Assembly: GCA_021108275.1 (NCBI GenBank)
Contig: JAIORD010000024.1
Location: 61,172 to 101,171, forward strand
Length of the DNA stretch: 40,000 nt
Direction: 5' to 3'
Origin: Methanococcoides sp.
GTDB lineage: Archaea; Halobacteriota; Methanosarcinia; Methanosarcinales; Methanosarcinaceae
Below the pieces are notes generated by a model. That model did no database searches, was not told the DNA's origin, and saw only the letters and a list, made by a program, of their open reading frames with translations. Every line of letters begins with the position of its first letter. The first letter of the stretch is position 1. Positions 3,253 to 21,612 of this stretch are shown piece by piece. Made by a program: the position numbers and the translations under genes.

Positions 3253-4434
<1,182 letters not shown>

Positions 4435-4528: not shown

Positions 4529-4532
4529 ACGG

Positions 4533-4781
4533 CTAAAAGGATATAGAGAAGTTGTGCGACTGTGGTTTAGTGGTATGACCTGAGCTTCCCAAGCTTGCCT
4601 GTTTGATCGGGGAGATTTGTGAGAATGTTGTCCCCGAGTTCAACTCTGCCACCGTGTATAAAACGCTATCATGTGTAGGTGTGTTGGAGAAGACTGATCT
4701 GCATCGCAGGAATTGATGCGACACATGTAGCGCAAGGACAAATGATACCAGCTTACTTTGTGCGTACTGAGAGCTTTTCAT
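4533..4781 (-). pseudogene. int(N): N-terminal part of the partitioned integrase gene, reading through attL
   Basis: The ORF encodes ...SPIKQA-SLGSSGHTTKPQS-HNFSISF. The att-encoded SLGSSGHTTKPQS peptide is read in the same frame at attR, where it continues into the integrase frame. Confidence 0.55.
4555..4596 (+). repeat. attL: 42-bp direct repeat identical to 10913..10954 (5' half of tRNA-Gly through the anticodon arm)
   Basis: tgcgactgtggtttagtggtatgacctgagcttcccaagctt occurs exactly at both positions. The sequences diverge immediately outside the repeat. Confidence 0.9.
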
Positions 4782-5163
4782 TGAGGCTTAGACTACTGGA
4801 GCAAGGAAGGTTACTGAAGAGTTTAATTATATGATGAATAGTAAAGTTGAGTATAGGAAGAATAATTTTACCTGGGGATCTGTTCTTTTGGTTAAGGTAA
4901 GGGAGTTAAGTCATCATCTTGTGGGGAAAAGGAAAACGATTGAGTTCGGTAAGCCTGCTTATGTTGGGAAAAGGGATGATTCCGACTTGCTGAGGAAGAA
5001 GATTTTTGACATGCCTTATTCTGAATGGAAGAAGATAGGGTTCTCTAAGGGTACTTTACACTACATGGAGCAAAATGCCAGAAGTGAGAAGCCGTTTACT
5101 CTCAATGCTCATGTTAGGGAGATATTGAAGACTTGGGACAACGGGCTTAGTGTAAATGGATAG
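4766..5163 (+). pseudogene. cas1: Casposase (Cas1) C-terminal fragment, 5'-truncated and frameshifted; intact 110-codon HTH-region ORF at 4831..5163
   Basis: Nucleotide and protein homology (about 73% aa identity by eye) to the last roughly 130 codons of the intact Cas1 at 12743..13960. There is a 1-nt deletion relative to the intact copy near 4790-4796. Homology stops abruptly at 4766. Confidence 0.85.
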
Positions 5164-5310
5164 CTTACATGTAAACTCAATAGCAGTAACAGGTTTTGCA
5201 TTATGAAAGGCAATATCGATAGCAACAGAGGAGTTTAGTAATATTACTTATATTAATATTCAGGTGCTATATAACCGATAATAATATCACTAATACTCCT
5301 GAAAAGTATT

Positions 5311-7254
5311 TTATTGTACTTTGCATTCTATAGGAATTGTAAATGAGAACGTACTTCCTTTTCCAACTTCACTTTCAACCCAGATTTCCCCGCCATGCAT
5401 TTCAACAAACTTCTTGACAAGTGCAAGACCAAGCCCCGTCCCTTTTTCCACTTTTGTTTCGAATTTATCGACTTGTAAGAAAGGTTCGAAGATAGAAGAA
5501 AGGGCATCATACCCAATACCTTTGCCAGTATCTTCAACACTGAAATGATTCTCATTTCCAACAATTGAACCATTAATTGTTATAGAACCACCTTCTGAAG
5601 TGAATTTAATAGCATTGCTGAGTAGGTTATAAAGTATCTGTTTGAACTTTGTAAGATCAGCGAATATCCACTTCATACCCTCATCAATAGAAAAGTTCAG
5701 ATTAAGGTTCTTTTTAAGGATAAGGGGCATCAAAGAATAGCAGACTTCATCAATTGCATCCAGAGAATTGAATTCTTCGATAATAATTTCCATCTTTCCT
5801 GCTTCTATCTTTGAAAGATCCAGAATGTCATTGATAACCTTCAATAAGTGTTTCCCACTATCCGCAATATTTCCAGTATACTTGATCTCTTTTTCATTCA
5901 GGTTACCGAAAGGATTGCTATTTAGCAACTGTGAGAAGCCGATGATGGAATTAAGAGGCGTGCGTAGTTCATGACTCATGTTTGCGAGGAATTCGGTCTT
6001 GGTACGGTTGGCAGCTTCCGCCACAAGTTTTGCATTGACCATTGCTTCTTCTGCTTTCTTCTGCTCGGTAATATTATCGAATACTACCCCTACGCAATTA
6101 TTTGGTAAGGGGAAGACTTTGACTGAAAATATATTCTCAAGAACTCGTTCATCGACATAGTAAACGTCTTCCAAGACCCTGGACTGACCAGTCCGAACAA
6201 CTTCGGCAAAAGTATGTGGAATATCCCTCTCTCTGAGACCAGGAAAAATCTCATCTATAGTCTTTCCAAGGAGAACTTCATTGGGAACACCTGTAAAATC
6301 AGAAGCTGCTGGATTTGCAGCTATCAGCCTGAGAGTTCTATCATCATCTAAGTTCTCTAAATAATAGACATAAAGCCCTATTCGCACATTCTCAAAGATG
6401 TATGCATACTGTTGAATGGCTTCTTCCACTTTCTTGCGTTCAGTAATATCCTGCATTGTTCCAGACAGCCAAATAGCCTGGCCAGCTTTGTTAAAAGTAA
6501 CCTCACCTTGCGCATGAACAATACGTTCTGAGCTATCGGGCAAAAGAATGCGGTAGTTAATACTATACGGTTTATGTTCATATATTGCCTTATTTATATT
6601 ATCTTGAACAAACAACTCGTCATCAGGATGGACGTACTTTAGAAATGACTCAAAAGTAGTTTCAAATCTCGGGGGTGCCAGCCCAAGGATGTTATAGATC
6701 TCGTTAGATAATTTTACCTTATTTTTGACGAGGTCCCAATCCCAATTACCAAGATGGGAAATCCGCTGTGCATTGGACAAACTGGCCTCACTCTTACGTA
6801 GAGTTTCTTCCATCTGCTTGCGCTCGGTGATGTCTCGTACAGTAACCTGCAGAATCTGTTTATCTTTTAACAAAAAGCGCGTTAGACACACTTCAGCAGT
6901 GAATTCCTCTCCATTTTGTCTGCGGTGAACCCATTCAAACTTGGTAGATTCATTCTTGAAGGCCTCTGAGATTCGATCTTGTGCAGCACTCCACGAATCT
7001 TCCCCATTTGGCTGCTTTGTAGGTGATATTTCGGATGGATGTAATGCAATAAATTCTTCTTTTCCTGAGATGCCGAACATCTTCAGAGCCGCTTTATTAC
7101 AGTCGATGAATCCTTTCTCGTCCATTAATATAAAGACGTCAGAAGATGATTCGAACAGCACATGATAGCATTCATCGTTTAAAATACCTGTTTTTTCAAG
7201 TGTAGAGATTTTAGTCTCTTGTTTTTCCAACCGATTCAAATCATCTTCGACCAT
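5311..7254 (-). CDS. Multi-PAS sensor histidine kinase
   Basis: 647 aa with several PAS-like segments, H-box SHELRTPLN and an HATPase region (GTGLGLALVKKFVEMHGG). Confidence 0.85.
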   Translation of the reverse strand: MVEDDLNRLEKQETKISTLEKTGILNDECYHVLFESSSDVFILMDEKGFIDCNKAALKMFGISGKEEFIALHPSEISPTKQPNGEDSWSAAQDRISEAFKNESTKFEWVHRRQNGEEFTAEVCLTRFLLKDKQILQVTVRDITERKQMEETLRKSEASLSNAQRISHLGNWDWDLVKNKVKLSNEIYNILGLAPPRFETTFESFLKYVHPDDELFVQDNINKAIYEHKPYSINYRILLPDSSERIVHAQGEVTFNKAGQAIWLSGTMQDITERKKVEEAIQQYAYIFENVRIGLYVYYLENLDDDRTLRLIAANPAASDFTGVPNEVLLGKTIDEIFPGLRERDIPHTFAEVVRTGQSRVLEDVYYVDERVLENIFSVKVFPLPNNCVGVVFDNITEQKKAEEAMVNAKLVAEAANRTKTEFLANMSHELRTPLNSIIGFSQLLNSNPFGNLNEKEIKYTGNIADSGKHLLKVINDILDLSKIEAGKMEIIIEEFNSLDAIDEVCYSLMPLILKKNLNLNFSIDEGMKWIFADLTKFKQILYNLLSNAIKFTSEGGSITINGSIVGNENHFSVEDTGKGIGYDALSSIFEPFLQVDKFETKVEKGTGLGLALVKKFVEMHGGEIWVESEVGKGSTFSFTIPIECKVQ

Positions 7255-7391
7255 TTATCCCTCTTCAATTATACTGAATGTGATTTTAATTTAAATTTGT
7301 TGACATATTTAAGGTATGGTCTGCAACAAAATTATGACAGTTCATGTTTTGCCCTAATTATAACTATAATCAAGATTTTTAATCGATAATA

Positions 7392-7444
7392 ATTGAATTA
7401 ACTTCATTCATCACTTTGAGGTACTTATTACCAGTTTCTGTAAT
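7392..7444 (-). repeat. 53-bp near-perfect copy (52/53) of the 3' coding end of the wHTH gene (8678..8730); truncated paralog remnant
   Basis: attgaattaacttcattcatca(c/t)tttgaggtacttattaccagtttctgtaat occurs at both sites. It encodes ...TETGNKYLK(V/M)MNEVNSI on the minus strand. Confidence 0.8.
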
Positions 7445-8204
7445 AGTATCGCAACACAGCATATGACGAGAACTTCTTCTTCCGTATTAGTACCGCTCAA
7501 AGACTGTCAACACTTTTGCTTTCATTATCGGTGTTTTCCGCTTTAGATATCTTAATTTCCAACAAATAGATTATCCCGAATGTTATAAGCAGTTGTGCTT
7601 AAAAGTAAAGGAACCGTTGTCAGTGAACTTATACTCCTTCCTAAAAGAGAACTTAAATTGTATATTAGTAACAAAGAAATTGCAACTAATGAAATGATAA
7701 TCGTTTTTACTTTTATTTCGTGTTTCATTTACTCCCCTCTTCCACACATACATTTTAAACAAATTCCCATTGTTGTTTTGTATACAATTAATTATGTGTT
7801 ATTTATATTTTCCCCTACGTCTTTGTGCATAATGGTCATTTGAGATAATATTATATGACATAATCCAAATTAAAGAGTGAGGGGTTAAAAAACATGGATT
7901 TTACTCAAAGATTTAATTTAAGAATTGTCGAGCTAGTGAGCAAGAATCAAAAAAATATTCGTATATTAGCTATTCTTTTGTTGATAATGACGGCAGGAAC
8001 AAAATTAGCATTAAATATTGATCCAGTATATGCACCCATGGGGACGGTGGGTGGCCTTATTTTTGGTATGAATCTAACATACTATATTTTCCAATGATAA
8101 AGCAAGGCACAAAGCAGGTCATAAACGGTATAATGGCATGCTTAGCCATTCTTTTTTTTATTTTGAAATTCAAACTTCCACGAAATACAAATGCTGTCTG
8201 TTGC

Positions 8205-8285
8205 CTTCCGTATTACATGAAACAGAATACCAAGAATTATAAGCCGTATACTCTTAATACTCATGTGAGTGAGAGGTTGAGAGAT
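8205..8285 (+). pseudogene. cas1: Second, short casposase (Cas1) C-terminal remnant
   Basis: LPYYMKQNTKNYKPYTLNTHVSERLRD aligns with LHYMKQNAMSDKPFSLNAHVKERLEN at the C-terminus of the intact Cas1. Confidence 0.65.
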
Positions 8286-8327
8286 TGCAATGCTCAAAAG
8301 GCTTTATGATAACATCATTAATAACCA

Positions 8328-8474
8328 TTAATCGTCCTTTCTCGTTCTTACAATATCAAGATAGAAATAAAGCATCAATGCGTAAATTCCAACAACAACA
8401 GCGATCGCTCCTGCGATATATCCCACGTGAGTTGAATCGAAGTCTATTATCAGATTCATTGCTTCAGCTTGCAT
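8328..8474 (-). CDS. Possible 48-aa single-pass membrane peptide (below the ORF-track size cutoff)
   Basis: Manual translation gives MQAEAMNLIIDFDSTHVGYIAGAIAVVVGIYALMLYFYLDIVRTRKDD. It has one clear hydrophobic helix followed by a basic tail, and no homology evidence. Confidence 0.25.
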   Translation of the reverse strand: MQAEAMNLIIDFDSTHVGYIAGAIAVVVGIYALMLYFYLDIVRTRKDD

Positions 8475-8637
8475 TTTTGATTCATATCGGCTATCATGTA
8501 AATAGAAATGAATATTATAGAGTCGATTGACGAAACATGGAATAAATATGTTGCCTCTTAGGACATACTTAATGAGTGTATTACAATAATAAAAAATGAA
8601 TAAGTAGCAAAAAAGAAGTCAACTGATTAAGATTGAT

Positions 8638-8967
8638 TCAATTAGTGTTAGCAACACAAAGATTTTTGTCGACAATGATTGAATTAACTTCATTCATCAT
8701 TTTGAGGTACTTATTACCAGTTTCTGTAATGTTGTATTTGTTGGAAGGTTTTTCCACCAAATTTATTTGCATCATCATGTCGAGATACTGATCCGCTCTT
8801 TTAAAATTTAAATTTGCATTATATACTATTGCAGTTTTAGTTACTTCAGATCCTTTTAAGACTTTCAATATATCCACCATTATTTCTAATTTATCTCTCG
8901 TACTCACACCACCTAAAGTTTCCAGAGGGGATGGAGGGAGACAGGTGCGCCTCCCCCATTTAATCAT
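8638..8967 (-). CDS. Winged-helix DNA-binding protein
   Basis: The pattern MVDILKVLKGSEVTKTAIVYNANLNFKRADQYLDMMMQINLVEK is typical of small archaeal wHTH regulators. The true start may be the internal M. Confidence 0.6.
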   Translation of the reverse strand: MIKWGRRTCLPPSPLETLGGVSTRDKLEIMVDILKVLKGSEVTKTAIVYNANLNFKRADQYLDMMMQINLVEKPSNKYNITETGNKYLKMMNEVNSIIVDKNLCVANTN

Positions 8968-9152
8968 ATAGTAGAGCCAACACCACCACGACTTTCATCC
9001 ATTGAACGTACCCCCGTACCCCAATTAACAAATCGTACATAGCTCGTAATATATAATAGTAGGTTTATAACATATAAACTCTCCGAATGTTTTTCGAATG
9101 TCATTATACTCATTATAATGAGGTATGGTTAAACAGGTAATGTTGATAAAAA

Positions 9153-9587
9153 TTATGAAATAAGATGATTAATGTTATCCATTTCATTTGATATAATCTT
9201 TTTAATGCCATGATTGCCTTTTTCCATAACCATATTAATCGCAACGGAAATATCTTCATGAGTAAAATCGTGGTTGATTAAGAGATGAACTACAGCATCA
9301 TGCCCATCCATACCCATTAAAATATGTGATTCCAATGCTGATGCCCATTTACATTCATTTGAACAAAAATAAAACACCTCCTCGGTATAAACTCCATCAA
9401 TATTTTCTCCATGGATTAGTTTGTGGTTGAGTGATTCCGATTCAAGTTTTTCCTTGCAGAAATTGCATCTATGCTCCAGAGATTTTATTTCCTCTGCATC
9501 TTTCTGTATACAGCATTTTTTGTATTTCTTCCCACTATTGCAGGGACATGGTTCATTCCGTCCAATCTTCATTCTATCACCGAACAA
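9153..9587 (-). CDS. SEC-C metal-binding motif protein
   Basis: N-terminal [18 protein letters not shown] (SEC-C zinc motif). The remainder is uncharacterised and has further Cys pairs. Confidence 0.6.
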
Positions 9588-9658
9588 GAATTAAATTAGA
9601 TGTATTTATAGATTTTTTTACGTTTACTTTTGTTAAATTTCAGGTTAGCAACATCGTG

Positions 9659-9934
9659 GGAATTTGATGCGACACATGCATCGCATGAATAATGCGTATC
9701 CATGTATGTACAGGGTAGATATTCCTATAGATGTCTTTATTCTTCAGGGGGATTTGCAATCTCCAGTTCGTATAAGGGTATTGTCATAACATTGTCAAAA
9801 TATATATTTCTCCTTCGGAAATGGTGTGTGTATGATCCGTGTCGCAAGGTGGGTGCTGCTATACCCATGTCGCATGGATAATTACGTTTAACGTGTGTCG
9901 CAATGATCCTGATACGTCCAATGTGTCGCATATG
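9659..9934. promoter_or_regulatory. Cluster of TGTCGCA/TGCGACA short repeats (candidate iterons or recombinase-accessory binding sites)
   Basis: gatgcgacacatgc (9666-9679), cgtgtcgcaagg (9838-9849), catgtcgcatgg (9865-9876), gtgtgtcgcaatg (9892-9904), atgtgtcgcatatg (9921-9934). A near-copy of ggaatt(t)gatgcgacacatg lies at 4708-4726 near attL. Confidence 0.4.
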
Positions 9935-10083
9935 TATTGAATAACGTCTAAATATAACCAAACGTGACTTGAGCCAGGGATTAGGGCTTGGGAAAAATTA
10001 AAACCTACATATGGACAGAATTGAACTGATACTATCCATAGCGTAGGGTCATATGTCTATACATGCACGCAATGATGATGTTA

Positions 10084-10773
10084 TCATGGTTTACGGGTAT
10101 TGATTATATCCTGTAGATTGGCAGATACTTTAGCATACGCGACCGTGGAATTGTTGAGCTTGTCTAGGTAGTTGGTCATTAGCACGGATCCATCTGTATG
10201 TCCGATCATATACTGGATCAGGGATTCTGATATACCCGCCTTGACGCATTGATCCACAAAAAAATTCCTACAATACTTCAACCCCATACCCCGTATCCTG
10301 ACATATTTCTTGACTGCGTCGATACTGATGTTAGGCTCTCGGTGTAAGGTTTCGGCAAATTCCGCGGGCATGAACGCTTTATTCGAATGTTTTTTCCCAC
10401 GGCTCCAGTCAATGTCATAGTATGCAACGTCACCCTCGATATGTAAGCACTTAACGTCAAAATTTTGGACGATAAAGATACCTTCGGTCACGCGTACACC
10501 ACTGTATAGTAAAAGTTCCATAAATTGCCGATACGTTGAATTTTGAACCGATCCCAGTACATTCTGGACATCATTTATACTCGGTACCCACGTATCTCGA
10601 TTGGTTTTCTTCATAGGCAGTGGTTTTTTCCATTCTATGGCCTGTTGCGATGTGATCAGTCCCTGATCCTCAATGAAATTGATGAAATTTCTGACTGCTT
10701 TGGCATATCCGTTCCAACCCTTTTTGACAGTGGATGATATTTGAACGATGTCGCGTCGGTCCTGAAGTGTCAC
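10084..10773 (-). CDS. Tyrosine recombinase/integrase, C-terminal catalytic part (int(C))
   Basis: Catalytic-type blocks LLYSGVRVTEG (Arg), YCRNFF, IGHTDG (His) and TNYL (Tyr). The frame stays open upstream to attR apart from one TAG at 10822-10824. Confidence 0.8.
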   Translation of the reverse strand: MTLQDRRDIVQISSTVKKGWNGYAKAVRNFINFIEDQGLITSQQAIEWKKPLPMKKTNRDTWVPSINDVQNVLGSVQNSTYRQFMELLLYSGVRVTEGIFIVQNFDVKCLHIEGDVAYYDIDWSRGKKHSNKAFMPAEFAETLHREPNISIDAVKKYVRIRGMGLKYCRNFFVDQCVKAGISESLIQYMIGHTDGSVLMTNYLDKLNNSTVAYAKVSANLQDIINTRKP

Positions 10774-10912
10774 ATCGGTAAGGTAACGATCCGTCGATCT
10801 GATATACGGTAAGGCGGTATCCTATTGCGTGCGTGCACATATCCATGATGTGAACTGGTCCCTGTGAACATTGTACAATACTGCACAACTTTTTGGAGAG
10901 TTAACGATGCCC

Positions 10913-10954
10913 TGCGACTGTGGTTTAGTGGTATGACCTGAGCTTCCCAAGCTT
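10913..10954 (+). repeat. attR: 42-bp direct repeat identical to 4555..4596
   Basis: Exact match to attL. It overlaps tRNA-Gly positions 1-41. Confidence 0.9.
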
Positions 10955-10984
10955 AGAACCCGGGTTCGAATCCCGGCAGCCGCA
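10914..10984 (+). tRNA. tRNA-Gly (anticodon CCC)
   Basis: Manual cloverleaf: acceptor GCGACTG/CAGCCGC with one A4:C69 mismatch, D-loop AGTGGTA, anticodon arm TGAGC-TTCCCAA-GCTTA, T-arm CCGGG-TTCGAAT-CCCGG, discriminator A. A T-run follows. Confidence 0.8.
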
Positions 10985-10992
10985 TCTTTTTT
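10985..10992 (+). terminator. Oligo-T terminator after tRNA-Gly
   Basis: tctttttt lies directly after the discriminator base. Confidence 0.4.
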
Positions 10993-11047
10993 GTGTATAA
11001 GTAACAGCTAGATAGATTACTTATTATAAATTTAGAGTTTGTTCGAA

Positions 11048-11068
11048 GTTCGAATCCAATCCCCCGCA
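11048..11068 (+). other. Orphan tRNA 3'-end-like remnant (T-loop plus acceptor 3' strand) at the casposon target
   Basis: gttcgaatccaatcccccgca resembles a GTTCGAATC T-loop plus a CCCCCGC-A acceptor 3' strand. No complementary 5' T-stem or 5' half lies upstream. Confidence 0.45.
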
Positions 11069-11081
11069 CAGCAAGTCGGGG
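11062..11081. repeat. Left copy of the 20-bp direct repeat flanking the casposon (target-site duplication)
   Basis: ccccgcacagcaagtcgggg is identical to 19665..19684 and directly abuts the TIR. Confidence 0.85.
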
Positions 11082-11117
11082 ATATAGGTAAGTCCATTTT
11101 TTTGTACGCGGTTGTGC
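11082..11117 (+). repeat. Casposon left terminal inverted repeat
   Basis: atataggtaagtccatttttttgtacgcggttgtgc compared with the reverse complement of 19629..19664, atataggtaacttgatttttttgtacggggttgtgc. Confidence 0.85.
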
Positions 11118-11297
11118 TGTCAATGTGCACATGCATTATTCAAATATCTTAAATATATAACACGATATTTTAATAATACCCGAATTTGTCTGAATAATAT
11201 TAAGTTATGCAATTGTATTAGAAAATATACCATGAGCGTTTTAAAGTATTTTTTACGACGTGCCTTTAAATAAAAAGAAATTTAAGAGTACTGCTGT

Positions 11298-12707
11298 ATG
11301 GAAAAAGAAGAGATTACAAAATCTATTGTTTTACCAGTAATTGTTGGAATTATTGTGCTATTAGTCTCATCTTTTGGAGTTAATTTATATATTGATCACC
11401 AAGAAACAAAAACAGAACTTGAGTATCATTTTGATCAAGCAAATAATTTTCACACCAAAGACCAATTTGAAGAAGCAATTGATGAATATGACAAGATTTT
11501 AAAAATCTCCTACAATGAATTTCCTTCTGAGTATGCATTAGCTCAAAATAATATTGGTAGCTCATACAGCCTTTTAGCCGAAATTGAAGACTCGGAAATA
11601 AATGCCGAGAATGCAATTAATTCCTACCAACAAGCCCTCGATTTTTATACAGTTGAAAAATACCCACTCGAATTTGCAAAGACACAATATGGTCTTGGAA
11701 ATGCATATTTGAATTTAGCTGAGATCAGAGATACAGAAACAAACATTGAAAACGCTATCAATGCCTTCCAAAAAGCTCTAGATGTAACTACAGTTGAGAA
11801 ATATCCAACCGGTTATGCAGCAACACAAAATAGTCTTGGAAATGCATATTTGAGTTCAGCTGAGGTAAGAGATACAGAAACAAATATTGAAAACGCTATC
11901 AATGCCTATCAAAAAGCTCTAGAGGTATCTACAATTGACACTTACCCCTTTGACTATGCGTCTACTCAAAATAATCTTGGGAATGCATATTTTAGTTTAG
12001 CTGAGGTAAGAGATACAGAAACAAATATTGAAAACGCTATCAATGCGTATCAAAAAGCTCTAGAGGTATCTACAATTGAAACTTACCCCTTCGAATATGC
12101 GTCTACTCAAAATAATCTTGGAAATGCCTATAAGAGTTTAGCTGAGATCCGAGACAAGAAAATAAACATTGAAAAAGCTATTAATACCTATCAAAAATCA
12201 CTAGAAGTATTTACAGTTGAAAAATATCCTCTTAGATATGCAGCAACTCAAATTAATCTTGGAAGCGCATATAGGGTTTTAGCTGAGGCTAGAGATACGG
12301 AAACAAATTCTGAACATGCTATTAATGCCTATCAAAAATCACTAGACATATATACAGTTGAGAATTATCCATTAATCTATGCTGGAACCCAAAATAATCT
12401 TGGGAATGCATATAGGGTTTTGGCTGAGGTTAGAGATACGGAAACAAATGCTGAACATTCCATTGCAGCGTTCCAAAAAGCTCTAGAAGTATATACAGTT
12501 GAAAAATATCCAATTAATTATGCAGATACTCAAAATAATCTTGGAACAGCATATATGGTCTTGTCAGGGGTTAGGAATAAAGAAACAAATGTTGAAAACG
12601 CTATTATTGCCTTCCAAAAAGCTCTAAACGTATATATATCCGAGGAATATCCTATAAAATATAATAATACATTAAATAATATTAAAAAAGCTATGGAATT
12701 TGGTTAA
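11298..12707 (+). CDS. Membrane-anchored TPR-like repeat protein (about 8.3 tandem 47-aa repeats), casposon cargo
   Basis: N-terminal TM helix (IVLPVIVGIIVLLVSSFGV), then repeats of YAxTQNNLGNAYxxLAEVRDTETNIENAINAYQKALEVxTxExYP. The units starting at 11859 and at 12000 are near-identical at the DNA level. Confidence 0.8.
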   Translation: MEKEEITKSIVLPVIVGIIVLLVSSFGVNLYIDHQETKTELEYHFDQANNFHTKDQFEEAIDEYDKILKISYNEFPSEYALAQNNIGSSYSLLAEIEDSEINAENAINSYQQALDFYTVEKYPLEFAKTQYGLGNAYLNLAEIRDTETNIENAINAFQKALDVTTVEKYPTGYAATQNSLGNAYLSSAEVRDTETNIENAINAYQKALEVSTIDTYPFDYASTQNNLGNAYFSLAEVRDTETNIENAINAYQKALEVSTIETYPFEYASTQNNLGNAYKSLAEIRDKKINIEKAINTYQKSLEVFTVEKYPLRYAATQINLGSAYRVLAEARDTETNSEHAINAYQKSLDIYTVENYPLIYAGTQNNLGNAYRVLAEVRDTETNAEHSIAAFQKALEVYTVEKYPINYADTQNNLGTAYMVLSGVRNKETNVENAIIAFQKALNVYISEEYPIKYNNTLNNIKKAMEFG

Positions 12708-12742
12708 GTCCAATATGCAACTTAATCCTATAAATTTTATTT

Positions 12743-13960: not shown

Positions 13961-13966
13961 TAGAAA

Positions 13967-14914
13967 TCACCATCCTCTAACATTATCTTTAAAAGGATCT
14001 TCTTTCATTCCAAGATTAATAAGAGATCTAACTCGAATCTCAGCAATGAATTGAGCAGGCTCATCTTCACCATCAAGCCTTAATTGTTCTTCAAAATTGT
14101 ATAGTTCTTCTCGATGTTCTTCTATTATGTTAGCTGTGTACTCTGATTCATAATCATGAACTATATCATGAAGATTTTCTAAAGTCTCAGCATCCTTCTT
14201 GAGTCTTTCAATAACAGACGCATCATTGTAATGTCCAAGTAAATAGATGATATGAGTTCTAAGATTTGTATATCTTGTCAATGGTTCAGGGTATCTATCT
14301 AATAATAATCTAAGATTTTCAATTGTCTCAGATTCATTAGCAGGATCAATGTTCTTTTTATCAATATAAGTATAAATTATTCTGAGAATATGTTCAATTA
14401 AAGTAATATCATCAGCTTTAAGTTGAGATACAAGCAGGTCTAATTGCTTTGGATTAAGAACATAATTCTGTTCATATCTTTCAATCTCTTTCAAAGCCAT
14501 TTTTTGCTGAATAGGATTATTAAATTTAAGTTTATTAATGACAGAATCTAAATGAGATAATATTTCTTCAGTTCGTCTTAATGTAACATAACAAGAACGT
14601 TTATCTTCATCTTTTATTCCAAATTGTTGGAGATCTTCAAACTTCAACACAAGTAGAATTCCTTTGCCCTGCATGTCATAGAGTTTTCTTTGAATATTTT
14701 CAACGCTATAGCCTCTGGTTTTCTTAAATTTAGTTCTTAATTTTTCAATGAGATCCCGTTTTCTTATAAAAGGGATAGTTTGTAAGATCGAAATCACATT
14801 ATACTCAAACTCATTAGTATTTTTATAAGAATTATAGTTATTCTTATCTGTATTTATATTCAAATTCATACTCAAACTTATAGTTAAATTTGATACAAAT
14901 AGGTATTGGTGCAT
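13967..14914 (-). CDS. Hypothetical casposon protein with N-terminal winged-helix-like region
   Basis: ORF of 315 aa; the likely start is the internal MNLNINT at 14869. It lies directly upstream of cas1 on the same strand (cas1 start 13960 is 6 nt below its stop at 13967). I recognise no family. Confidence 0.55.
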   Translation of the reverse strand: MHQYLFVSNLTISLSMNLNINTDKNNYNSYKNTNEFEYNVISILQTIPFIRKRDLIEKLRTKFKKTRGYSVENIQRKLYDMQGKGILLVLKFEDLQQFGIKDEDKRSCYVTLRRTEEILSHLDSVINKLKFNNPIQQKMALKEIERYEQNYVLNPKQLDLLVSQLKADDITLIEHILRIIYTYIDKKNIDPANESETIENLRLLLDRYPEPLTRYTNLRTHIIYLLGHYNDASVIERLKKDAETLENLHDIVHDYESEYTANIIEEHREELYNFEEQLRLDGEDEPAQFIAEIRVRSLINLGMKEDPFKDNVRGW

Positions 14915-14931
14915 ATATTAACTTGATTAAC

Positions 14932-15081
14932 ATGGATTCAATAAACGATACACAAAGAGTTCTTGCAACTCTCTCTCCTTACATCAAGGAGAAACTAGTA
15001 CAGATGTCAGATAAATTTGGATGCTCTCAGGCTGAAGTTGTCAGGATAGCATTGTTGAAGCTTTGGGAGGCTGAGAAATGA
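14932..15081 (+). CDS. Ribbon-helix-helix (CopG/Arc-like) DNA-binding protein
   Basis: MDSINDTQRVLATLSPYIKEKLVQMSDKFGCSQAEVVRIALLKLWE has a beta-strand/helix/helix pattern. It is the first gene of the operon leading to polB, and its stop overlaps the next start (ATGA). Confidence 0.6.
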   Translation: MDSINDTQRVLATLSPYIKEKLVQMSDKFGCSQAEVVRIALLKLWEAEK

Positions 15082-15716
15082 CTCTCAAGCGATTCTCAAA
15101 GGATTATAAGAACTATGGAGATTGGCTTAAAGCTCAACCAAGAACTTCAGAATATGCTAAAAGAGTAGTCAGGTTTCATGAAAAATTTCCAACTCTCAGC
15201 CTGAATGATTTGAGAAATACAAGACTCAAAGATCATAATCTAAGTACAGTTTCATGGAAAGTTCTGAAAGCACAACAAAAGAGAGATAGGAAACTATCCC
15301 TTGAAGTTCTCAGAACTATGAGGAAAGGGATTTCATTTTCAAAGGCAATTGAGAAAACAGGAGCTAACAAGAAGAACATAATTAGTAATCTTGGAAAATA
15401 CCTGTACAAATCAAAAGGGAAATGGAGAGTAACAGCTTCAGATAGAATTGAATCTGAAATGATGTTCTATGATAGAGATAAGGGCTTGATCTCTATTGTT
15501 GCAACAAGATCAAAAGATAGGAGCTTAATTGCTGAATATTTCAATGCTGTTAATCAAGCGTTGAGATCTAATGATACAAAGTTTTTGAAGAAATTTGAAA
15601 ATGCAACAGTCATTGATGCTGAAGGTAATGAGCATTATTTTGTAACAGACTTGGAAAGACTTTATGAGATTCAGGATGCACAGGAAGAGCCTGAATTCTT
15701 TGAATTATATGTTTAA
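15078..15716 (+). CDS. Hypothetical casposon protein with a putative HTH
   Basis: 212 aa. The segment LEVLRTMRKGISFSKAIEKTGANKKNIISNLG is HTH-like. It is translationally coupled within the RHH-HNH-polB operon. Confidence 0.5.
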   Translation: MTLKRFSKDYKNYGDWLKAQPRTSEYAKRVVRFHEKFPTLSLNDLRNTRLKDHNLSTVSWKVLKAQQKRDRKLSLEVLRTMRKGISFSKAIEKTGANKKNIISNLGKYLYKSKGKWRVTASDRIESEMMFYDRDKGLISIVATRSKDRSLIAEYFNAVNQALRSNDTKFLKKFENATVIDAEGNEHYFVTDLERLYEIQDAQEEPEFFELYV

Positions 15717-15732
15717 TTGGAGAGTGGATACT

Positions 15733-16065
15733 ATGGATAAAGAAGCTTACAGGAAGAATATTAGCAAGTACAAGAAAGGGAAGAAACCACCTATTGCATG
15801 TTCAGTATGTGGAGAAGATAATTCAGAAGTTATTGAAATGCACCATGTTGATGGAAGAAATACTTCAGATTGGGTAAAACCACTATGCAAGAATTGTCAT
15901 GCTAAGATTACAGCAGAACAGAATAAGATCAGTCCAAAGAAGAGATCTAAAACAACATCCTCAGAAAATCTAACAGCTTTCAACATCATTTCCATTGGTG
16001 CTTTGCTAAAACTACTTGGAGACCGTTTAATCAATCTTGGAATGGAGATGACTGTAAATGTCTAA
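15733..16065 (+). CDS. HNH endonuclease
   Basis: CSVCGEDNSEVIEMHHVDGRNTSDWVKPLCKNCHAKIT (Cys pairs plus HH...N...H). A GGAG-like RBS precedes the ATG at 15733, and the gene overlaps the polB start. Confidence 0.8.
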   Translation: MDKEAYRKNISKYKKGKKPPIACSVCGEDNSEVIEMHHVDGRNTSDWVKPLCKNCHAKITAEQNKISPKKRSKTTSSENLTAFNIISIGALLKLLGDRLINLGMEMTVNV

Positions 16066-18730
16066 GATCGCTGTTAGAGGATATACTCAGAAGATCAAGA
16101 AATCTTCAGTTAATCCTTTTTTCAAACCAAAGGATGTTCCATTAAGGCATGATAGGGTATTAGCCTTTGATACTGAAACAACAATAGATCAAAATCAGAA
16201 TTTTAAGATAGGACATTTCAAGATAAAACAGAATGGGTATATTCAGCATGAAGGTATGTTTTATGATACTTCTATGCTTACCGATGTTGAAATAAAAGTA
16301 TGTGAAGTATATACTTCAGAGCATGATATACCACTTTATACTCTAAATGAATTCATTGATGAGGTATTTTATCCTGAAATATTTGGTTTGAAAACTCTTT
16401 GTATTGGCTTCAACCTTCCCTTTGATATTAGCAGGATCTCTAAAAGAGTTGGAGATTCAAGAGGGAGAAATAAAGGAGGATTTACTTTTACACTTTCAGA
16501 TAATAGGTTCAATCCTCCTATTATTGTTACAAAAATGGGAGATGCTTCTAATTTTAAATTTACATCAACCAAGATAAACAAAGGAAAAGATAAATTTTCA
16601 GGTTATTTCCTTGATGTTCAAAAGTTAGCAGAGGTATTGCTCCAGAAGAAGCATATTTCACTTGATAAAGCATGTGAGATGCTTAATACCAATGTCAAAA
16701 AGATGAAAAATATTAAGCATGGAAAAGTAACTGAGAAATACATTGATTATTTGATTGCTGATGTTGAATCTACATATCAAGTTTATGAAAAATTGATTGA
16801 TGAGCTTGATCTTTATCAGATAAATATCCCACCAACTAAGATATTCAGTTCTGCGTCAATTGGCAAACAATCTCTTAAACAATTGGGTATTCAGTCATTT
16901 TTAGATCTTAACCCTGAATTTTCTTCAGAAACCATTGGAAACAACATGACTTCTTACTATGGGGGAAGATGTGAATGTAAGATCAGAAAAGAACCTACAA
17001 AAGTTACAGTTCTTGATTTTACAAGCATGTATCCAACTGTTACAATGATGATGGATCTCTGGAAATTCATGATAGCTGAATCTCTTGAAACTAAGGATGT
17101 TACTAATGAGATAAAGGACATGTTATCAAACCTAAACCTTAATTATCTTCAAAATAAGGGCAACTGGAATGATCTTGTTGTAATGGTAAAGTTACATGCG
17201 GAAGATGATATTTTACCTGTAAGGATGGATTATAAGGGTAATAATACAGGTTATAACGTTGGGGTAAATTACCTTAGTTCTGGTAATGAATTATGGTACG
17301 CTTTACCTGATGTAATTTCATCTGTTCTATTAACGGGTAAAGTTCCTAAGATCATTGAAGCTATTAGGTATATTCCAAAAGGTATTCAGAAAGGTTTGAA
17401 GAAATCTCAAATTCTTGGAATTGATATTGATCCTACAAAAGATAATCTTGTTCAGGTACTTGTTGAAGCAAGACAGAATCTTAAAATTCAAATGAAGAGC
17501 ATTGATAAAGAAGATCCTGAATATCAACAATTGAAAAGCAGGGCACAGGCTATTAAGATTTTAGTTAATGCCATGAGTTATGGAATTTTCATTGAGCTTA
17601 ATCCTGAAGATAAGAAAAGTGATATTCAAGTTTATGGATTGGATGAGTTCAATACTTCTGAGAACAGGTTTGAGAAAGCAGGAAATTATTTTCATCCTTT
17701 ACTTGCTGTCATGATTACAGCAGGATCTAAATTGTTCTTGGCAATGGCTGAAGCTAAATTAAAAGAACTTGGTTCAGTTCATGCTTACATGGATACAGAT
17801 TCTATTTTTGTTCCTCCTGAACATGCTCAAGAGATTATTAATTATTTCCAACCTCTCAATCCTTACAGTCTTGATATTGATCTGTTGAAAGCTGAGAAAG
17901 AAGATATGTGGTTTTATGGAATCTCATCAAAAAGATATGCACTTTATAATCTTGAAGATGGAGAAATCAAGTTCATGGATGGAGAGAGATCTTTCAAATT
18001 GCATGGACTTGGACATTTAACAAATCCATTTCCAAAGGCTGTTGAAGATTGGCAGGCTGAGATATGGGAAGATATTCTTAAACTTCATTATGGAATGATC
18101 TCTGAAGCTGATATTGAAGAGAAGTATTCAAATATGTATGCTATTTCAAGGCTTACTGTTTCAACTCCAAATGTTTTGCATAGGTTTGATACGATTAATA
18201 AAGGCAAGGAATGGGAAGATCAAATCAAATCATTCAATTTCTATCATGTTGGGTTTCAGGTTGCTGAAGAAGATGGTAAGGCAGTCAAGCCTTTATCTCC
18301 TTTCTCAAATGATCCTCAAAGTATTGTTTATGAACCATTTATTGATTATGGAACAGGCGAAATCAAGGAAGGATCACATTATTTCAAACCATTGAGTAGG
18401 ACAATAATGCAGTATGTGGAACATCTTGAGCATAAGTTTGATGGAGATATTGGTATTCTTGAAAGAAAGCATGTACATGCTGATTCTGTTATTTATATTG
18501 GAAAGGAAGCCAATAATATTGATGAACAGGAATTGGATGTAAAGAAGGCTCAAGAGTTTGTTGATGAGAAGTTAGTTTATGGTTTTATTTTGAATCTTAC
18601 TCCTGAGAAAGCAAGGGAGATTGGAATTAAACATAGAAGTGCTTTGGCTTATTTGAAGAAAAAAGCAAAGGAGGGAGATTTAAATTTTAGGTCTAGGAAC
18701 GTAAAGATAATAGTTAAATCTGTAAATTAA
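16058..18730 (+). CDS. polB: Family B DNA polymerase (casposon PolB)
   Basis: 890 aa with Exo I AFDTETT, motif B KILVNAMSYGIF and motif C YMDTDSIFV. Confidence 0.92.
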   Translation: MSKIAVRGYTQKIKKSSVNPFFKPKDVPLRHDRVLAFDTETTIDQNQNFKIGHFKIKQNGYIQHEGMFYDTSMLTDVEIKVCEVYTSEHDIPLYTLNEFIDEVFYPEIFGLKTLCIGFNLPFDISRISKRVGDSRGRNKGGFTFTLSDNRFNPPIIVTKMGDASNFKFTSTKINKGKDKFSGYFLDVQKLAEVLLQKKHISLDKACEMLNTNVKKMKNIKHGKVTEKYIDYLIADVESTYQVYEKLIDELDLYQINIPPTKIFSSASIGKQSLKQLGIQSFLDLNPEFSSETIGNNMTSYYGGRCECKIRKEPTKVTVLDFTSMYPTVTMMMDLWKFMIAESLETKDVTNEIKDMLSNLNLNYLQNKGNWNDLVVMVKLHAEDDILPVRMDYKGNNTGYNVGVNYLSSGNELWYALPDVISSVLLTGKVPKIIEAIRYIPKGIQKGLKKSQILGIDIDPTKDNLVQVLVEARQNLKIQMKSIDKEDPEYQQLKSRAQAIKILVNAMSYGIFIELNPEDKKSDIQVYGLDEFNTSENRFEKAGNYFHPLLAVMITAGSKLFLAMAEAKLKELGSVHAYMDTDSIFVPPEHAQEIINYFQPLNPYSLDIDLLKAEKEDMWFYGISSKRYALYNLEDGEIKFMDGERSFKLHGLGHLTNPFPKAVEDWQAEIWEDILKLHYGMISEADIEEKYSNMYAISRLTVSTPNVLHRFDTINKGKEWEDQIKSFNFYHVGFQVAEEDGKAVKPLSPFSNDPQSIVYEPFIDYGTGEIKEGSHYFKPLSRTIMQYVEHLEHKFDGDIGILERKHVHADSVIYIGKEANNIDEQELDVKKAQEFVDEKLVYGFILNLTPEKAREIGIKHRSALAYLKKKAKEGDLNFRSRNVKIIVKSVN

Positions 18731-18878
18731 TGGCTCTGTAGAAATCCTCTAAATTCATATAATTATGCTTATCAATAAAACTTCAAAACGTAGCTCTGAA
18801 TCTTGCTTACTTTTGCTGAATTTTGATTATAGATGTTGATTTAGATAGGTTTTCTACAAAGTCAAATTTTGTTCTTTA

Positions 18879-19325
18879 TTACAAAGGTGCTGGTATAAAT
18901 ACTCCAGGTGTTACCCAACTAGAGCCCAAACCGACCCCCTTTCCCTTATCCATGCTCTTCATCAATGTAAATTCTAGCGCAACGTACGCTGCTATAAGAG
19001 GCGCCACTGGCGCAAGCGGTGGAATTGCTGCTATCATACCTCCAACTGCGATAGTAATATCCCCTACAGTGTTTAAGTCATTCATAACAGGTTCTGGGAA
19101 TCTAATTATATACCCCCACCAGTAGCCCTTGAACGAAACAACATCTTTCTTAGCTTGAACTGCTAATTCTTTCTTGAAACTTTGTTCAATATGTTCTAAT
19201 TTAAGCATGTCCAAATTATTTTCTTTATAAATTTTAGAGATGTTTTCATGTAATAGTTTACGAAATTCTACATCTTCTTCAAATTTTTGCCCCATTGCTT
19301 GACTCATGCTTTCAAATTCATTCAT
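18879..19325 (-). CDS. Hypothetical protein with a Gly/Ala/Pro-rich hydrophobic C-terminal half (casposon cargo)
   Basis: 148 aa: an N-terminal charged helical region, then GDITIAVGGMIAAIPPLAPVAPLIAAYVALEF. I recognise no family. Confidence 0.45.
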   Translation of the reverse strand: MNEFESMSQAMGQKFEEDVEFRKLLHENISKIYKENNLDMLKLEHIEQSFKKELAVQAKKDVVSFKGYWWGYIIRFPEPVMNDLNTVGDITIAVGGMIAAIPPLAPVAPLIAAYVALEFTLMKSMDKGKGVGLGSSWVTPGVFIPAPL

Positions 19326-19628
19326 TCTATTTCACTCCCTATTAATTTTAACATGTTCAATCTTATTATTTAGGATTGAACAGTATTAAATTATAACATG
19401 AAAATCTAAACTATATATACATAATTGTAATTAATTTACACAGAGGTATATTATTTAACTCAATAATATGTATTAAAATCTTATGCATCACGCATAATCA
19501 AGTGTACAAAGTCTATATCTTTTTCTTGAACATCATGAGATCTTTTTAATGCCATTTCACACCTTCCTTTATTGTGGGGTTTTTTGAAACATTGAAATTA
19601 TAGGCAATTCAGGTTTTGAATTATACTT

Positions 19629-19664
19629 GCACAACCCCGTACAAAAAAATCAAGTTACCTATAT
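19629..19664 (-). repeat. Casposon right terminal inverted repeat
   Basis: Its reverse complement matches 11082..11117 at 32 of 36 positions. Confidence 0.85.
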
Positions 19665-19684
19665 CCCCGCACAGCAAGTCGGGG
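19665..19684. repeat. Right copy of the 20-bp direct repeat (target-site duplication)
   Basis: ccccgcacagcaagtcgggg is identical to 11062..11081. Confidence 0.85.
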
Positions 19685-19740
19685 TAATAGTAATAGCCAA
19701 AAAACGCAACCATTCTAAATCCCCTTTAAAAAAATAAAAG

Positions 19741-21111
19741 TTATAAAGTGGTTTCTTTGTAATTTTCTAGTTTATTTAGAAATGGTTTATCTTTGTAGTT
19801 AAGAATAGTAAGAAGTGTCCTGTCAATAAAAAAGACCAATCTTGTATATTCTTCATAAGGATCTATGGCTCTTGTATCTAATTCTTCAGGAAATTTTCCA
19901 TCGTGTACTACTTTGTTTCTAAGTCTCATAAGGCTCTTATCTTCCGAAGTACAATCAATACGATATTTTTTGATAAGTGCATTTAACTTGTCATCAAAAG
20001 TTGTGTGTGGATATGCAATAGATTCTACAATTTTATCTATAATTTCATCTTCAAGAGGAACATCCTCTTTTTTGAGAACCTTTATCAATTTCTTTTTTGT
20101 TGACTTTTGCAAACTGGGAACAATAGTTTCTCCAATCGTTTCAAGGTAATTTTCAAAATTACTTAGTAAACTTTCTACAGCAACAAACATCAGCATAAAT
20201 TTTGCTTCAGTATATGGAGTGACCCCCGATGTTAAATATAAGGATATGATGGCATTTAACCGAAGTGTATTTTTGTATTCTTGATAACTATCATATGTAG
20301 TTTCTAAAAAGTATTTTATGGAACAGGAGGTTGGGGAATCGACATCAATTAGTTGGTCAGAACCGTTATAAGTATGTGCAAGCACTGGATTTAAAGTAGT
20401 TTTAATTATCCTACCCTCATAAAAATGATCCTCATATATCGGGCTTATGTAATTTCTAGTAGCTAATGATAACAGCCTTGATATATCAAAAATAATCTCT
20501 TTAGATTCATCTGTGCTATCAATCGATAGATTAACAATTGCTTCAGCAGTGACAAAACAGCCTTTTTTTTCAGTTAAACGACTTTTGATTTCAGCATAGT
20601 TTTCTACTTTTTTGAATAGAAATGACAAATCTCTTATATTTGCTTTGAATTTGTCTAATATTCTACTTCTACCATTTTTCGAATATTCACATCCTAAAAA
20701 TACAAAATTTGTAAGCCCATAATGACTTTCAACGTCAATTGACTTTTCATCAGAATAAACAATGTCGACATTTGATAAGCAAATCATTGATACTTTGTTT
20801 TTTACGTTTTCTCCAGATTTAGCTGATAAACCTGACGAAGTGACTAACAAACCCTCAATAGAAATGTGCCCAATTTCATTATTTTTATCCACAATAGAAC
20901 CGTTTAAATCTCCTTCTACAGAAGATTCTACCATGGTAAGTGTAGATAAATTTTCTTTTGTTAGCGCAAATTCTGTATGTACAATTATTCTTGAGTTTGA
21001 AAAAAATAAGAGTGTGAATTTAGCCTTTTGTTCGCATAATTTATCAGTCTTAAACGTAAAAGTTCCTTCCCCATTATATTCTCTTAATACCTCAGAATCC
21101 ATAATTTCCAA
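19741..21111 (-). CDS. Orphan 456-aa protein with a C-terminal HEPN-like domain (Rx4H), ApeA-like architecture
   Basis: C-terminal helical region FVAVESLLSNFE ... SLMRLRNKVVHDGKF contains R398-x4-H403 (codons at 19918-19920 and 19903-19905). The large N-terminal domain has no motif I can name. Confidence 0.6.
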   Translation of the reverse strand: MEIMDSEVLREYNGEGTFTFKTDKLCEQKAKFTLLFFSNSRIIVHTEFALTKENLSTLTMVESSVEGDLNGSIVDKNNEIGHISIEGLLVTSSGLSAKSGENVKNKVSMICLSNVDIVYSDEKSIDVESHYGLTNFVFLGCEYSKNGRSRILDKFKANIRDLSFLFKKVENYAEIKSRLTEKKGCFVTAEAIVNLSIDSTDESKEIIFDISRLLSLATRNYISPIYEDHFYEGRIIKTTLNPVLAHTYNGSDQLIDVDSPTSCSIKYFLETTYDSYQEYKNTLRLNAIISLYLTSGVTPYTEAKFMLMFVAVESLLSNFENYLETIGETIVPSLQKSTKKKLIKVLKKEDVPLEDEIIDKIVESIAYPHTTFDDKLNALIKKYRIDCTSEDKSLMRLRNKVVHDGKFPEELDTRAIDPYEEYTRLVFFIDRTLLTILNYKDKPFLNKLENYKETTL

Positions 21112-21230
21112 TCTCCAACATGAAGCAACAGGTTAATCTCTAAAATTTACTCTTAGAGGATAAATACTCTGCTAAACATATATATTTGTTTACAAAGTGT
21201 TTGGTCAAATAAAAAAAGAAAGGGTAAGAA

Positions 21231-21509
21231 TCAGAATCCACTTACCAATTTCCTCACTTCCTTTGTCCTGAAATTAAACTTCCCACCACTCAAAATCCTA
21301 TCTTTCATCCGTTTCAAACTGCTCCTCTGCATAACTCCATATTCCCTTGCTTCCTTTGGAGTCAGAGCCAATATCTTCCTCATGATCTCTTTCTCATCAA
21401 CAAATAACTGAGCCTTCTTCACATCAAGTTCCTCCTCATCAATGTTGTTGGCTTCCTTGCCAATGTAAACAATTCCATCAGCATGAACATGTTTCCTTTC
21501 AAGAACTTC
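21231..21509 (-). pseudogene. polB: Casposon PolB C-terminal fragment (about 93 codons), orientation opposite to the intact polB
   Basis: Manual translation VLERKHVHADGIVYIGKEANNIDEEELDVKKAQLFVDEK...LTPKEAREYG...FNFRTKEVRKLV aligns with the intact PolB tail ILERKHVHADSVIYIGKEANNIDEQELDVKKAQEFVDEK...LTPEKAREIG...LNFRSRNVKIIV. Homology ends near 21509. Confidence 0.8.
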
Positions 21510-21612
21510 AGTACCAGTATAAATGCTGCAAGAACAAACATAAATCCAAAATCTAAAGATCTCTACTGCCTAAACAACAAACATTATATAATTATTAGAC
21601 CAATTTTACTGC

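Follow-up and report, generated by a model that had tools for sequence, protein, structure and literature searches.

A probable recurrent landing zone for casposons and a suicidal-integrase element beside tRNA-Gly in Methanococcoides

The CRISPR adaptation machinery is presumed to descend from casposons and, to our knowledge, natural evidence on the target choice, accumulation and decay of these elements is sparse outside Methanosarcina mazei. Here we describe a locus of a Methanococcoides genome at which an intact casposon (casposon A), a decayed tandem casposon (casposon B) and an element with a tyrosine integrase stand side by side next to tRNA-Gly(CCC). The locus was analysed in a window of 40,000 nucleotides (G000:C9:61172-101171, G000 being the genome under study); positions are those of the window unless a contig (C1, C7, C8 and so on) or a congener locus (L0xx) is prefixed. 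The genome comprises 2.67 Mb with a GC content of 41.7%, and its nearest named relatives are Methanococcoides seepicolus, M. vulcani, M. alaskense and M. sp. FTZ1. The explanation that we favour, and hold as a whole with high confidence, is that the interval from SepCysS/tRNA-Gly(CCC) to the rhodanese operon has repeatedly served mobile elements of two unrelated kinds as a landing zone.

Relation to described systems

The closest described elements are the family-2 casposons of Methanosarcina (MetMaz and the tandem Met2HT1A3), which possess a duplication of the target site (TSD) of 14 bp that opens with CGCA, the final four bases of tRNA-Leu (PMC4779613, PMC6977970). Tandem casposons with a shared TSD, one of them decayed, were described in that genus by Krupovic et al. 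in 2016, together with both orientations, tetratricopeptide repeat (TPR) cargo and cohabitation with integrase elements (PMC4779613), and Hickman et al. found that the TSD and 30 bp of tRNA-Leu constitute a sufficient casposase target (PMC6977970). The casposons at the present locus resemble these in the gene set (Cas1 with a helix-turn-helix (HTH) domain, PolB, HNH, two open reading frames (ORFs) and TPR cargo), in a 14-bp CGCA TSD at the end of a tRNA-Leu-type sequence, in the occurrence of both orientations, and in a casposase approximately 75% identical to that of M. mazei (Protein Data Bank (PDB) entry 6OPM). They differ in their host genus, for which only fragmented casposons without terminal inverted repeats (TIRs) had been reported (three, in M. 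burtonii; PMC4046053), in a target that is a pseudo-tRNA fragment rather than a tRNA-Leu gene, in the HEPN/ApeA-like gene carried by the relic copy, and in a genome with two intact copies and dozens of fragments.

A casposon beside an unrelated integrase element at one tRNA locus has a precedent in MetMaz1FA1A3-C2 and MetMaz1FA1A3-E1 (PMC4779613). Both members of that pair occupy the 3' end of one tRNA-Leu, with overlapping sites, and E1 encodes a classical integrase, whereas here the 5' 42 bp of tRNA-Gly serve a suicidal integrase of the SSV type, and a separate pseudo-tRNA-Leu pad serves the casposons. The integrases of SSV1, pTN3 and pT26-2 (Badel et al. 2020, PMC7253208; PMC8371274) share with the present one the PF16795 domain and an attachment site (attP) within the gene, approximately 50–65 codons from its start, and become split when the element enters a tRNA gene; the presence of suicidal integrases in Methanosarcinales has already been noted (PMC8371274). 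In contrast to those elements, the present one has a mesophilic methanogen as host, an in-frame TAG, casposon debris instead of replication genes as cargo, and an att duplication that covers the 5' part of the tRNA in G000, as opposed to the 3' part in M. vulcani and in genome G088. Site-specific accumulation of Tn7-like elements, an analogy drawn in the casposon papers, likewise proceeds by repeated hits on one site that produce an array in which older copies decay, albeit with TnsABC+D rather than a Cas1 casposase.

New features of the present locus are the genus, the intact element, the pseudo-tRNA target, the use of different tRNA parts by each enzyme, the HEPN cargo and the casposon debris inside an integrase element. 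The locus provides a clean second example, with an intact element, perfect ends and a suicidal-integrase neighbour, in a genus for which only dead casposons had been reported.

Variable occupancy of a conserved interval

The interval is bounded by two conserved flanks:

3271–4434, + strand: SepCysS, conserved left flank (TIGR02539 equivalog, 582 bits; syntenic in 12 of 12 congeners)
21613–22875, + strand: triple-rhodanese gene, first gene of the right-flank operon (Pfam; synteny)

Between them, over roughly 4500–21500, the GC content drops from approximately 0.48 to 0.32. An earlier note, made from the sequence alone, had described this segment as a multilayer integration hotspot that records casposon turnover beside a tyrosine-integrase element, and all the features that it listed were found at or near the positions given, including one tRNA (10913–10986), one tRNA 5' half (4555–4596) and one tRNA-3'-like relic (11041–11068). 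The locus was compared across 12 congeners, in all of which the order csl4-orf91-SepCysS-tRNA-Gly is invariant. The right flank, a rhodanese-EgtD-SufS-SufE operon, is syntenic in eight of the 12 and was not found in the other four. Where the operon shares a contig with SepCysS and tRNA-Gly, the distance to the rhodanese gene is as follows:

M. sp. FTZ1 (G002): about 1.2 kb
G001 and G005: about 2.6–2.7 kb
G007: 4.5 kb
G000 (window): 17.2 kb
M. vulcani (G004): 23 kb

The four short intervals contain ordinary ORFs, and a search of them for TIR-like sequence found none. In the closest relative, G010, a deletion extends from just 3' of the tRNA into the Fae gene (L015 1990–2064 compared with window 10998–26532), and this genome is without the casposons, HxlR, the 5' part of Fae and the entire rhodanese-EgtD-SufS-SufE operon.

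Lengths of the interval thus range from approximately 1 kb, free of mobile-element signatures, up to 23 kb, which makes this locus a genuine hotspot, and the core of the earlier proposal is upheld. The alternative that the segment consists of ordinary, vertically inherited genes, in an order kept by relatives without att, TIR or TSD signatures, is not what the congeners show. It could appeal only to the housekeeping-looking cargo, such as the kinase and the TPR protein, and is contradicted both by the variation of the interval and by the signatures (att, TIR and TSD) described below; we accord it practically no credence.

An SSV-type integrase element in tRNA-Gly

The left part of the segment is a 6.3-kb element (4597–10912) flanked by a perfect att repeat (42/42):

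4555–4596, + strand: attL, the first 42 nt of tRNA-Gly, at the native position of the tRNA (perfect repeat of 10913–10954; flank homology of relatives runs into attL)
4597–4781, − strand: int(N), N-terminal part of the integrase, reading into attL (open frame joins int(C) in phase)
7382–7444, − strand: 3' relic of an HTH_45 gene
8638–8967, − strand: winged-helix HTH_45 gene (Pfam, E=2.6e-23)
9153–9587, − strand: SEC-C motif protein (Pfam)
10084–10912, − strand: int(C), catalytic part of an SSV-type integrase (PF16795, E=8.5e-25, ORF 10084–10773)
10913–10986, + strand: intact tRNA-Gly(CCC), with attR at 10913–10954 (ARAGORN, Rfam)

The int(C) part matches structures of the SSV1 integrase catalytic domain (3UXU, 3VCF and 4DKS). 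When minus-strand 4781–4597, the att sequence and 10912–10084 are joined, a single phase of 352 codons results that is interrupted by one TAG (10822–10824; table 11), in keeping with the split-integrase element listed in the earlier note. The joined product is collinear with a contiguous 349-residue ORF of M. vulcani, whose catalytic domain starts from residue 186 and whose tRNA-derived stretch is found approximately 50–65 codons into the frame. This layout (PMC7253208, PMC8371274), together with the SSV1 structure matches, identifies the integrase as one of the SSV-type "suicidal" enzymes. Moreover, an ORF of congener G012 reads into the same 5'-half att, and its last approximately 28 residues are conserved with 4597–4680 at the protein level. 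A non-split integrase that starts from a TTG just past att is possible, as the homologues in G088 and G008 have an ATG there, but is less likely in view of the contiguous M. vulcani frame with SSV1-like domain spacing and of the conserved int(N) in G012.

The site is found empty as well as occupied. Homology to the left flank of relatives ends after the first 42 nt of the tRNA and restarts at 10913, and on Scaffold52 of M. seepicolus the sequences corresponding to 4300–4596 and 10913–10992 are contiguous (L035 45–378); M. burtonii, G010 and G003 have the same empty att site. M. vulcani, G088 and G012 have this tRNA-Gly occupied by the integrase family, in each case with a frame that stays open across att. 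The att duplication comprises tRNA positions 28–73 in M. vulcani and G088 compared with 1–42 in G000, which places the crossover region common to both att types in the anticodon arm. A circular element encoding such an integrase would have recombined with the 5' 42 bp of tRNA-Gly; with attP inside the integrase gene, integration would split the gene, leaving int(N) by attL and int(C) by attR. This event would date from after the split from M. seepicolus.

The integrase TAG aligns with a conserved Glu. Methanococcoides has been reported to read TAG as pyrrolysine genome-wide (preprint 10.1101/2024.09.30.615893), and TAG terminates only 3–5% of long ORFs in G000. SepCysS itself contains one in-frame TAG and is otherwise full length in four congeners (G004, G008, G009 and G012), which is consistent with the reported reading. 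In view of these observations the integrase is not to be called dead from its TAG alone, and the codon may encode pyrrolysine.

Genes for replication or virion proteins were not found in the element, whose cargo comprises only the kinase described below, the winged-helix protein, the SEC-C protein, small ORFs and Cas1 debris; the element is probably reduced or rearranged. A 15-mer, TTGATGCGACACATG, occurs twice within it, at 4713–4727 and 9664–9678 (chance expectation 0.11), and could be an arm-type or regulatory site. In M. vulcani, the 21-kb element is flanked by a direct repeat of at least 95 nt (L013:3560–3654 and L014:11830–11922) that spans int(N)-like coding sequence past the tRNA 3' end, which accounts for the contiguous 349-residue integrase gene there; this structure looks like the product of successive integrations rebuilding an int gene. 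In G012, a defence island opens at the same tRNA-Gly 5'-half att (L017 1558–20000) and contains MoxR-VWA, an RNase III-like gene, a Pycsar cyclase with its PycTM effector, a serine resolvase and a UvrD-like helicase.

Cas1 relics as the ends of one module

Three further features lie between attL and attR:

4727–5157, + strand: Cas1 C-terminal relic (residues 261–404), left end of the module (tblastn 75% identity; blastn 83%)
5311–7254, − strand: PAS/HisKA/HATPase sensor kinase, module cargo (Pfam; paralogous copy in the C1 module)
8211–8288, + strand: Cas1 mini-relic (residues 372–397), right end of the module (homology to Cas1)

The earlier note had counted three casposon gene relics as separate insertions that decayed in place. 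The relics are indeed present and truncated, and M. seepicolus has a full Cas1 in the same (+) orientation at the locus, so that the 4727–5157 relic could have had an ancestor residing here. On the other hand, both Cas1 relics lie within the integrase element, a search of 4597–10912 for TIRs and TSDs with up to three mismatches found none, and approximately 35 Cas1 3' fragments occur in the genome in unrelated contexts. The two relics and the kinase between them are matched by a single block on contig C1 (window 5023–8283 compared with C1:53171–48840), with 85–95% identity in blocks (94.5% between 5023–5442 and C1:53171–52752, and 85.7% between 7434–8283 and C1:49715–48840). The C1 copy stands behind a TIR and pad at C1:46213. 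Because of this match, both Cas1 fragments are read as the two ends of one module of approximately 3.5 kb, in the order Cas1 tail, PAS sensor kinase, HTH_45 remnant, small ORFs and Cas1 tail. Separate insertion and decay of all three relics is thus an unlikely account, if one that retains some weight.

On the simplest reading, recombination brought casposon-arm debris into the integrase element, or that element carried it, and two extra casposition events are not needed; the module would most likely have come by recombination or duplication rather than by casposition. The related element of G012 also holds a Cas1 fragment. The earlier figure of at least four independent insertions is accordingly replaced by three integration events, each well supported (the integrase element, casposon A and casposon B), and one acquisition by recombination.

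A tRNA-Leu-like landing pad and an intact casposon

Downstream of tRNA-Gly lie the landing pad and casposon A (11079–19667):

11041–11068, + strand: casposon landing pad, a tRNA-Leu-like pseudo-3' end (matches best to 3' ends of tRNA-Leu)
11065–11078, no strand: left TSD, CGCACAGCAAGTCG (identical to 19668–19681; begins with CGCA as in M. mazei, PMC4779613)
11079–11117, + strand: left TIR of casposon A (inverted-repeat match)
11298–12707, + strand: TPR-repeat cargo gene with 141-nt periodicity (Pfam; repeat analysis)
12743–13960, − strand: casposase, Cas1 with C-terminal HTH (PF01867, E=3.7e-69)
13967–14914, − strand: conserved casposon core ORF of 315 residues (found in 13 other casposon loci)
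15078–15716, + strand: conserved casposon core ORF of 212 residues (found in 14 other casposon loci)
15664–16065, + strand: HNH endonuclease (weak Pfam match; conserved in 13 casposon loci)
16058–18730, + strand: family B DNA polymerase, PolB (Pfam)
18879–19325, − strand: ORF of 148 residues, only in casposon A (no family; no homologue in other casposon loci)
19629–19667, − strand: right TIR of casposon A (inverted-repeat match)
19668–19681, no strand: right TSD, common to casposon A and relic casposon B (14/14 with the left TSD)

The TIRs are 39–41 nt long, 35/41 identical, and end symmetrically in GGGATATAGG, and the 14-bp TSD is perfect (14/14). A perfect att repeat of 42 nt, and a perfect 14-nt TSD located precisely where the TIRs end, far exceed what chance would produce. 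The casposase aligns with the M. mazei enzyme 6OPM over residues 1–397, including the HTH tail (E=5.7e-189, approximately 75% identity), and the element has the family-2 complement of Cas1-HTH, PolB, HNH, two conserved accessory ORFs (which may be the published HTH proteins), TIRs and a 14-bp CGCA TSD. The earlier description of one intact casposon, with Cas1, HNH and PolB between TIRs, is thereby confirmed, and casposon A may still be active. Excision PCR has previously been applied to M. mazei Gö1 (PMC10359463). Two other readings of the ends, a 10-bp TSD with a symmetric TIR and a 15-bp TSD with asymmetric ends, were dropped in favour of the 14-bp TSD on the basis of the symmetric TIR ends, the CGCA rule and the TSD CGCATAGAAAGTCG of a second intact casposon on contig C8. 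The TPR gene contains seven 141-nt (47-codon) repeats at 11529–12674 that are 68–72% identical. Searches of the 148-, 212- and 315-residue products with PADLOC and against NCBIfam and PDB sequences gave nothing useful.

The sequence 5' of the TSD does not belong to tRNA-Gly. It matches tRNA-Leu 3' ends in up to 24 of 28 positions and comprises a T-loop, acceptor strand and CGCA, 55 nt downstream of tRNA-Gly. The 3' end of tRNA-Gly itself likewise finishes in CGCA. The earlier note's statement that two different integrases each used tRNA-derived sequence therefore stands for the tyrosine integrase on tRNA-Gly, while Cas1 used a tRNA-Leu-like pseudo-3' end and not tRNA-Gly. As the TSD and 30 bp of tRNA-Leu suffice for the casposase (Hickman et al.), the pseudo-fragment is enough as a target; its use lends in vivo support to the rule that the enzyme needs only the TSD and approximately 30 bp of tRNA-like sequence. 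The pad satisfies this rule and has been a repeated target.

The pad and approximately 60 nt upstream of it are orthologous in M. burtonii and M. seepicolus, where they lie 1.35 kb and 0.6 kb from tRNA-Gly, respectively, with the TSD variants CGCACAGCATGTCG and CGCACAGAATGTCG, each followed by a TIR. The pad was thus in use before the three species diverged, and provides a dated series of occupants at one orthologous site in three species: relics only in M. burtonii and, in M. seepicolus, a solo TIR, a second pad, an oppositely oriented casposon of 11.3 kb and another tandem relic. The comparison of related species that the earlier note had called for thus returned an interval of approximately 1 to 23 kb, an empty att in M. 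seepicolus and an orthologous pad with different occupants.

Casposon A could itself be an ancient resident, the same as in M. seepicolus, that was vertically inherited and whose orientation was reversed by recombination between its TIRs. The core genes of the two elements share 84% identity across 5.8 kb and lie in inverted orientation to each other, and both possibilities have been discussed for M. mazei (PMC4779613). However, the two casposons have different TSDs and pads (CGCACAGCAAGTCG compared with CGCACAATCTTTCG), different cargo and different lengths (8.6 compared with 11.3 kb), and the TSD is perfect in G000 as opposed to the mutated variants at the orthologous pad elsewhere. A flipped resident is therefore quite improbable, and a separate, later insertion of casposon A at the pad is preferred.

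A decayed tandem casposon with a HEPN-type gene

The right TSD of casposon A is directly followed by a second decayed element:

19682–19720, + strand: TIR, of the second type, belonging to the older tandem casposon B (alignment with the TIR type at C8:66397)
19741–21111, − strand: HEPN-type (ApeA-like) cargo gene of casposon B (R-x4-H motif; weak profile matches)
21243–21506, − strand: PolB C-terminal relic (residues 800–886) of casposon B, cut at the host junction (homology to PolB)

The sequence GGGTAATAGTAATAGCCAAAAAACGCAACC after the TSD aligns with a second TIR type that is present in approximately eight other places in the genome, and a TIR-TSD-TIR junction like that at 19668 is also found on contigs C8 and C7. 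Both the HEPN ORF and the tail of PolB are directed toward the TIR at 19682, which is the layout expected of the PolB-side arm of a casposon, and on this basis the TIR, HEPN gene and PolB relic are assigned to one decayed element. The PolB relic and the HEPN gene that the earlier note had listed are thus both real (the R-x4-H motif is invariant); rather than items of their own, they are recast, with the previously unnoticed TIR, as a single tandem relic in which the HEPN gene is cargo. Casposon B is the older of the two casposons because casposon A lies between it and the pad.

The HEPN ORF encodes 456 residues, of which R395 and H400 are invariant in 18 homologues. It shows a sub-threshold match to Pfam HEPN_RiboL-PSP, and five of the 18 homologues show weak matches to HEPN families in Pfam. 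An AF2 model (mean pLDDT 83) consists of a β-rich N-domain and a helical C-domain (residues 259–433), in which the motif lies. In a feature search, the nearest Atlas clusters carry HEPN_Apea/ApeA_NTD1. A Foldseek comparison of the model with the PDB returned nothing at E≤0.001 and only weak Hcp-like β-barrel matches to the N-domain, PADLOC gave no match, and searches against NCBIfam and PDB sequences gave nothing useful. Membership in ApeA is thus not upheld by curated profiles or Foldseek, and the Atlas feature search is the sole source of the putative ApeA link. None of 42 other casposon loci yielded a homologue of the HEPN gene or of the 148-residue ORF. The gene is a candidate defence gene carried as casposon cargo.

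Order of events and opposing evidence

The sequence of events that best fits the layout would begin with casposon B, with its HEPN cargo, as the first casposon in, later reduced to a single TIR, its cargo gene and the tail of PolB. Intact casposon A would then have inserted between the pad and B, re-duplicating the 14-bp target, with the element closest to the pad being the youngest.

The whole 17 kb could instead be one composite island acquired by a single transfer, for example as a large integrative element that already carried casposons. The low GC content is uniform along the segment, and G010 lacks everything from the tRNA into Fae, both of which speak for such a transfer. Against this, the att repeats bracket only 4597–10912 and the TSDs only 11079–19667, M. 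seepicolus has a casposon array but an empty att, the pad with its first TIR is orthologous in three species, and the rhodanese operon beyond the island is syntenic in eight of 12 congeners. We consider a single transfer very improbable and retain successive integrations by two kinds of element.

Several observations nevertheless weigh against successive integrations as set out here. An empty site for casposon A was not found, the orthologous pad being occupied in every relative that has it. The junction between the PolB relic and host sequence (21506–21509) is common to M. seepicolus, and the relics are approximately 70% identical compared with 93% for the adjoining flank (21243–21509 compared with L035:16636–16860), which leaves the age and descent of relic B uncertain. 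The HEPN assignment is founded on a motif, sub-threshold profile matches and language-model similarity. Finally, the integrase frame contains the TAG and has its start codon within Cas1-derived sequence, and the gene may be dead.

Casposon remains and pseudo-tRNA pads across the genome

G000 contains two intact casposons, approximately 35 Cas1 3' fragments and approximately 10 PolB fragments. The second intact casposon (C8:46085–54893) has Cas1 and PolB 85–89% identical to those of casposon A; a further TIR adjoins its right end, and a tRNA-Leu(CAG) lies 2.3 kb upstream. Within the window, a solo casposon TIR, GGGGATATAGGCAGCTCTTATTTTTTGTATGC, is present at 27762–27800 (+), between a YdjM-like gene and a methyltransferase gene, and is kept in G010 (L015:3435).

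Motifs comprising a T-loop followed by CGCA number 25 in the genome. Ten are in real tRNA genes, none of which is occupied, and ten are pseudo-fragments, each followed by a TIR. All ten pseudo-fragments at casposon ends are pseudo-tRNA-Leu 3' pieces of approximately 25–55 nt in unrelated contexts, and none of the eight genuine tRNA-Leu genes has a casposon attached. A search for common upstream sequence among the pseudo-tRNA pads found only approximately 30–50 nt of additional tRNA-like similarity, in five of them, and nothing beyond.

A block of approximately 120 nt that encodes the casposase C-terminal HTH (residues approximately 357–398; window 12764–12891 (−)) is present in 21 copies in G000, for example at C8:57104–57231, C4:193424–193542 and C22:20504–20614; the counts are 8–12 in congeners and 1–10 in other Methanosarcinaceae. 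Eleven copies have the same sharp left edge at TGGAAGAAGATGGG with unrelated flanks.

Neither the pseudo-pad pattern nor the dispersed HTH block is explained by the present model, and these genome-wide patterns could change a current picture of casposons that the locus itself leaves unchanged. One tentative idea, which we think unlikely but worth stating, is that the landing pads themselves were propagated, with casposons, or integrase elements with tRNA-Leu-mimicking att remnants, seeding new targets and building arrays or islands. The dispersed HTH block could be part of such pad propagation, or a domesticated or regulatory remnant.

On the right flank, 21613–25434 encodes three rhodanese domains, EgtD (TIGR03438 equivalog), a class-V aminotransferase (SufS-like) and SufE, with overlapping stops and starts; this operon may be of an anaerobic ergothioneine type.

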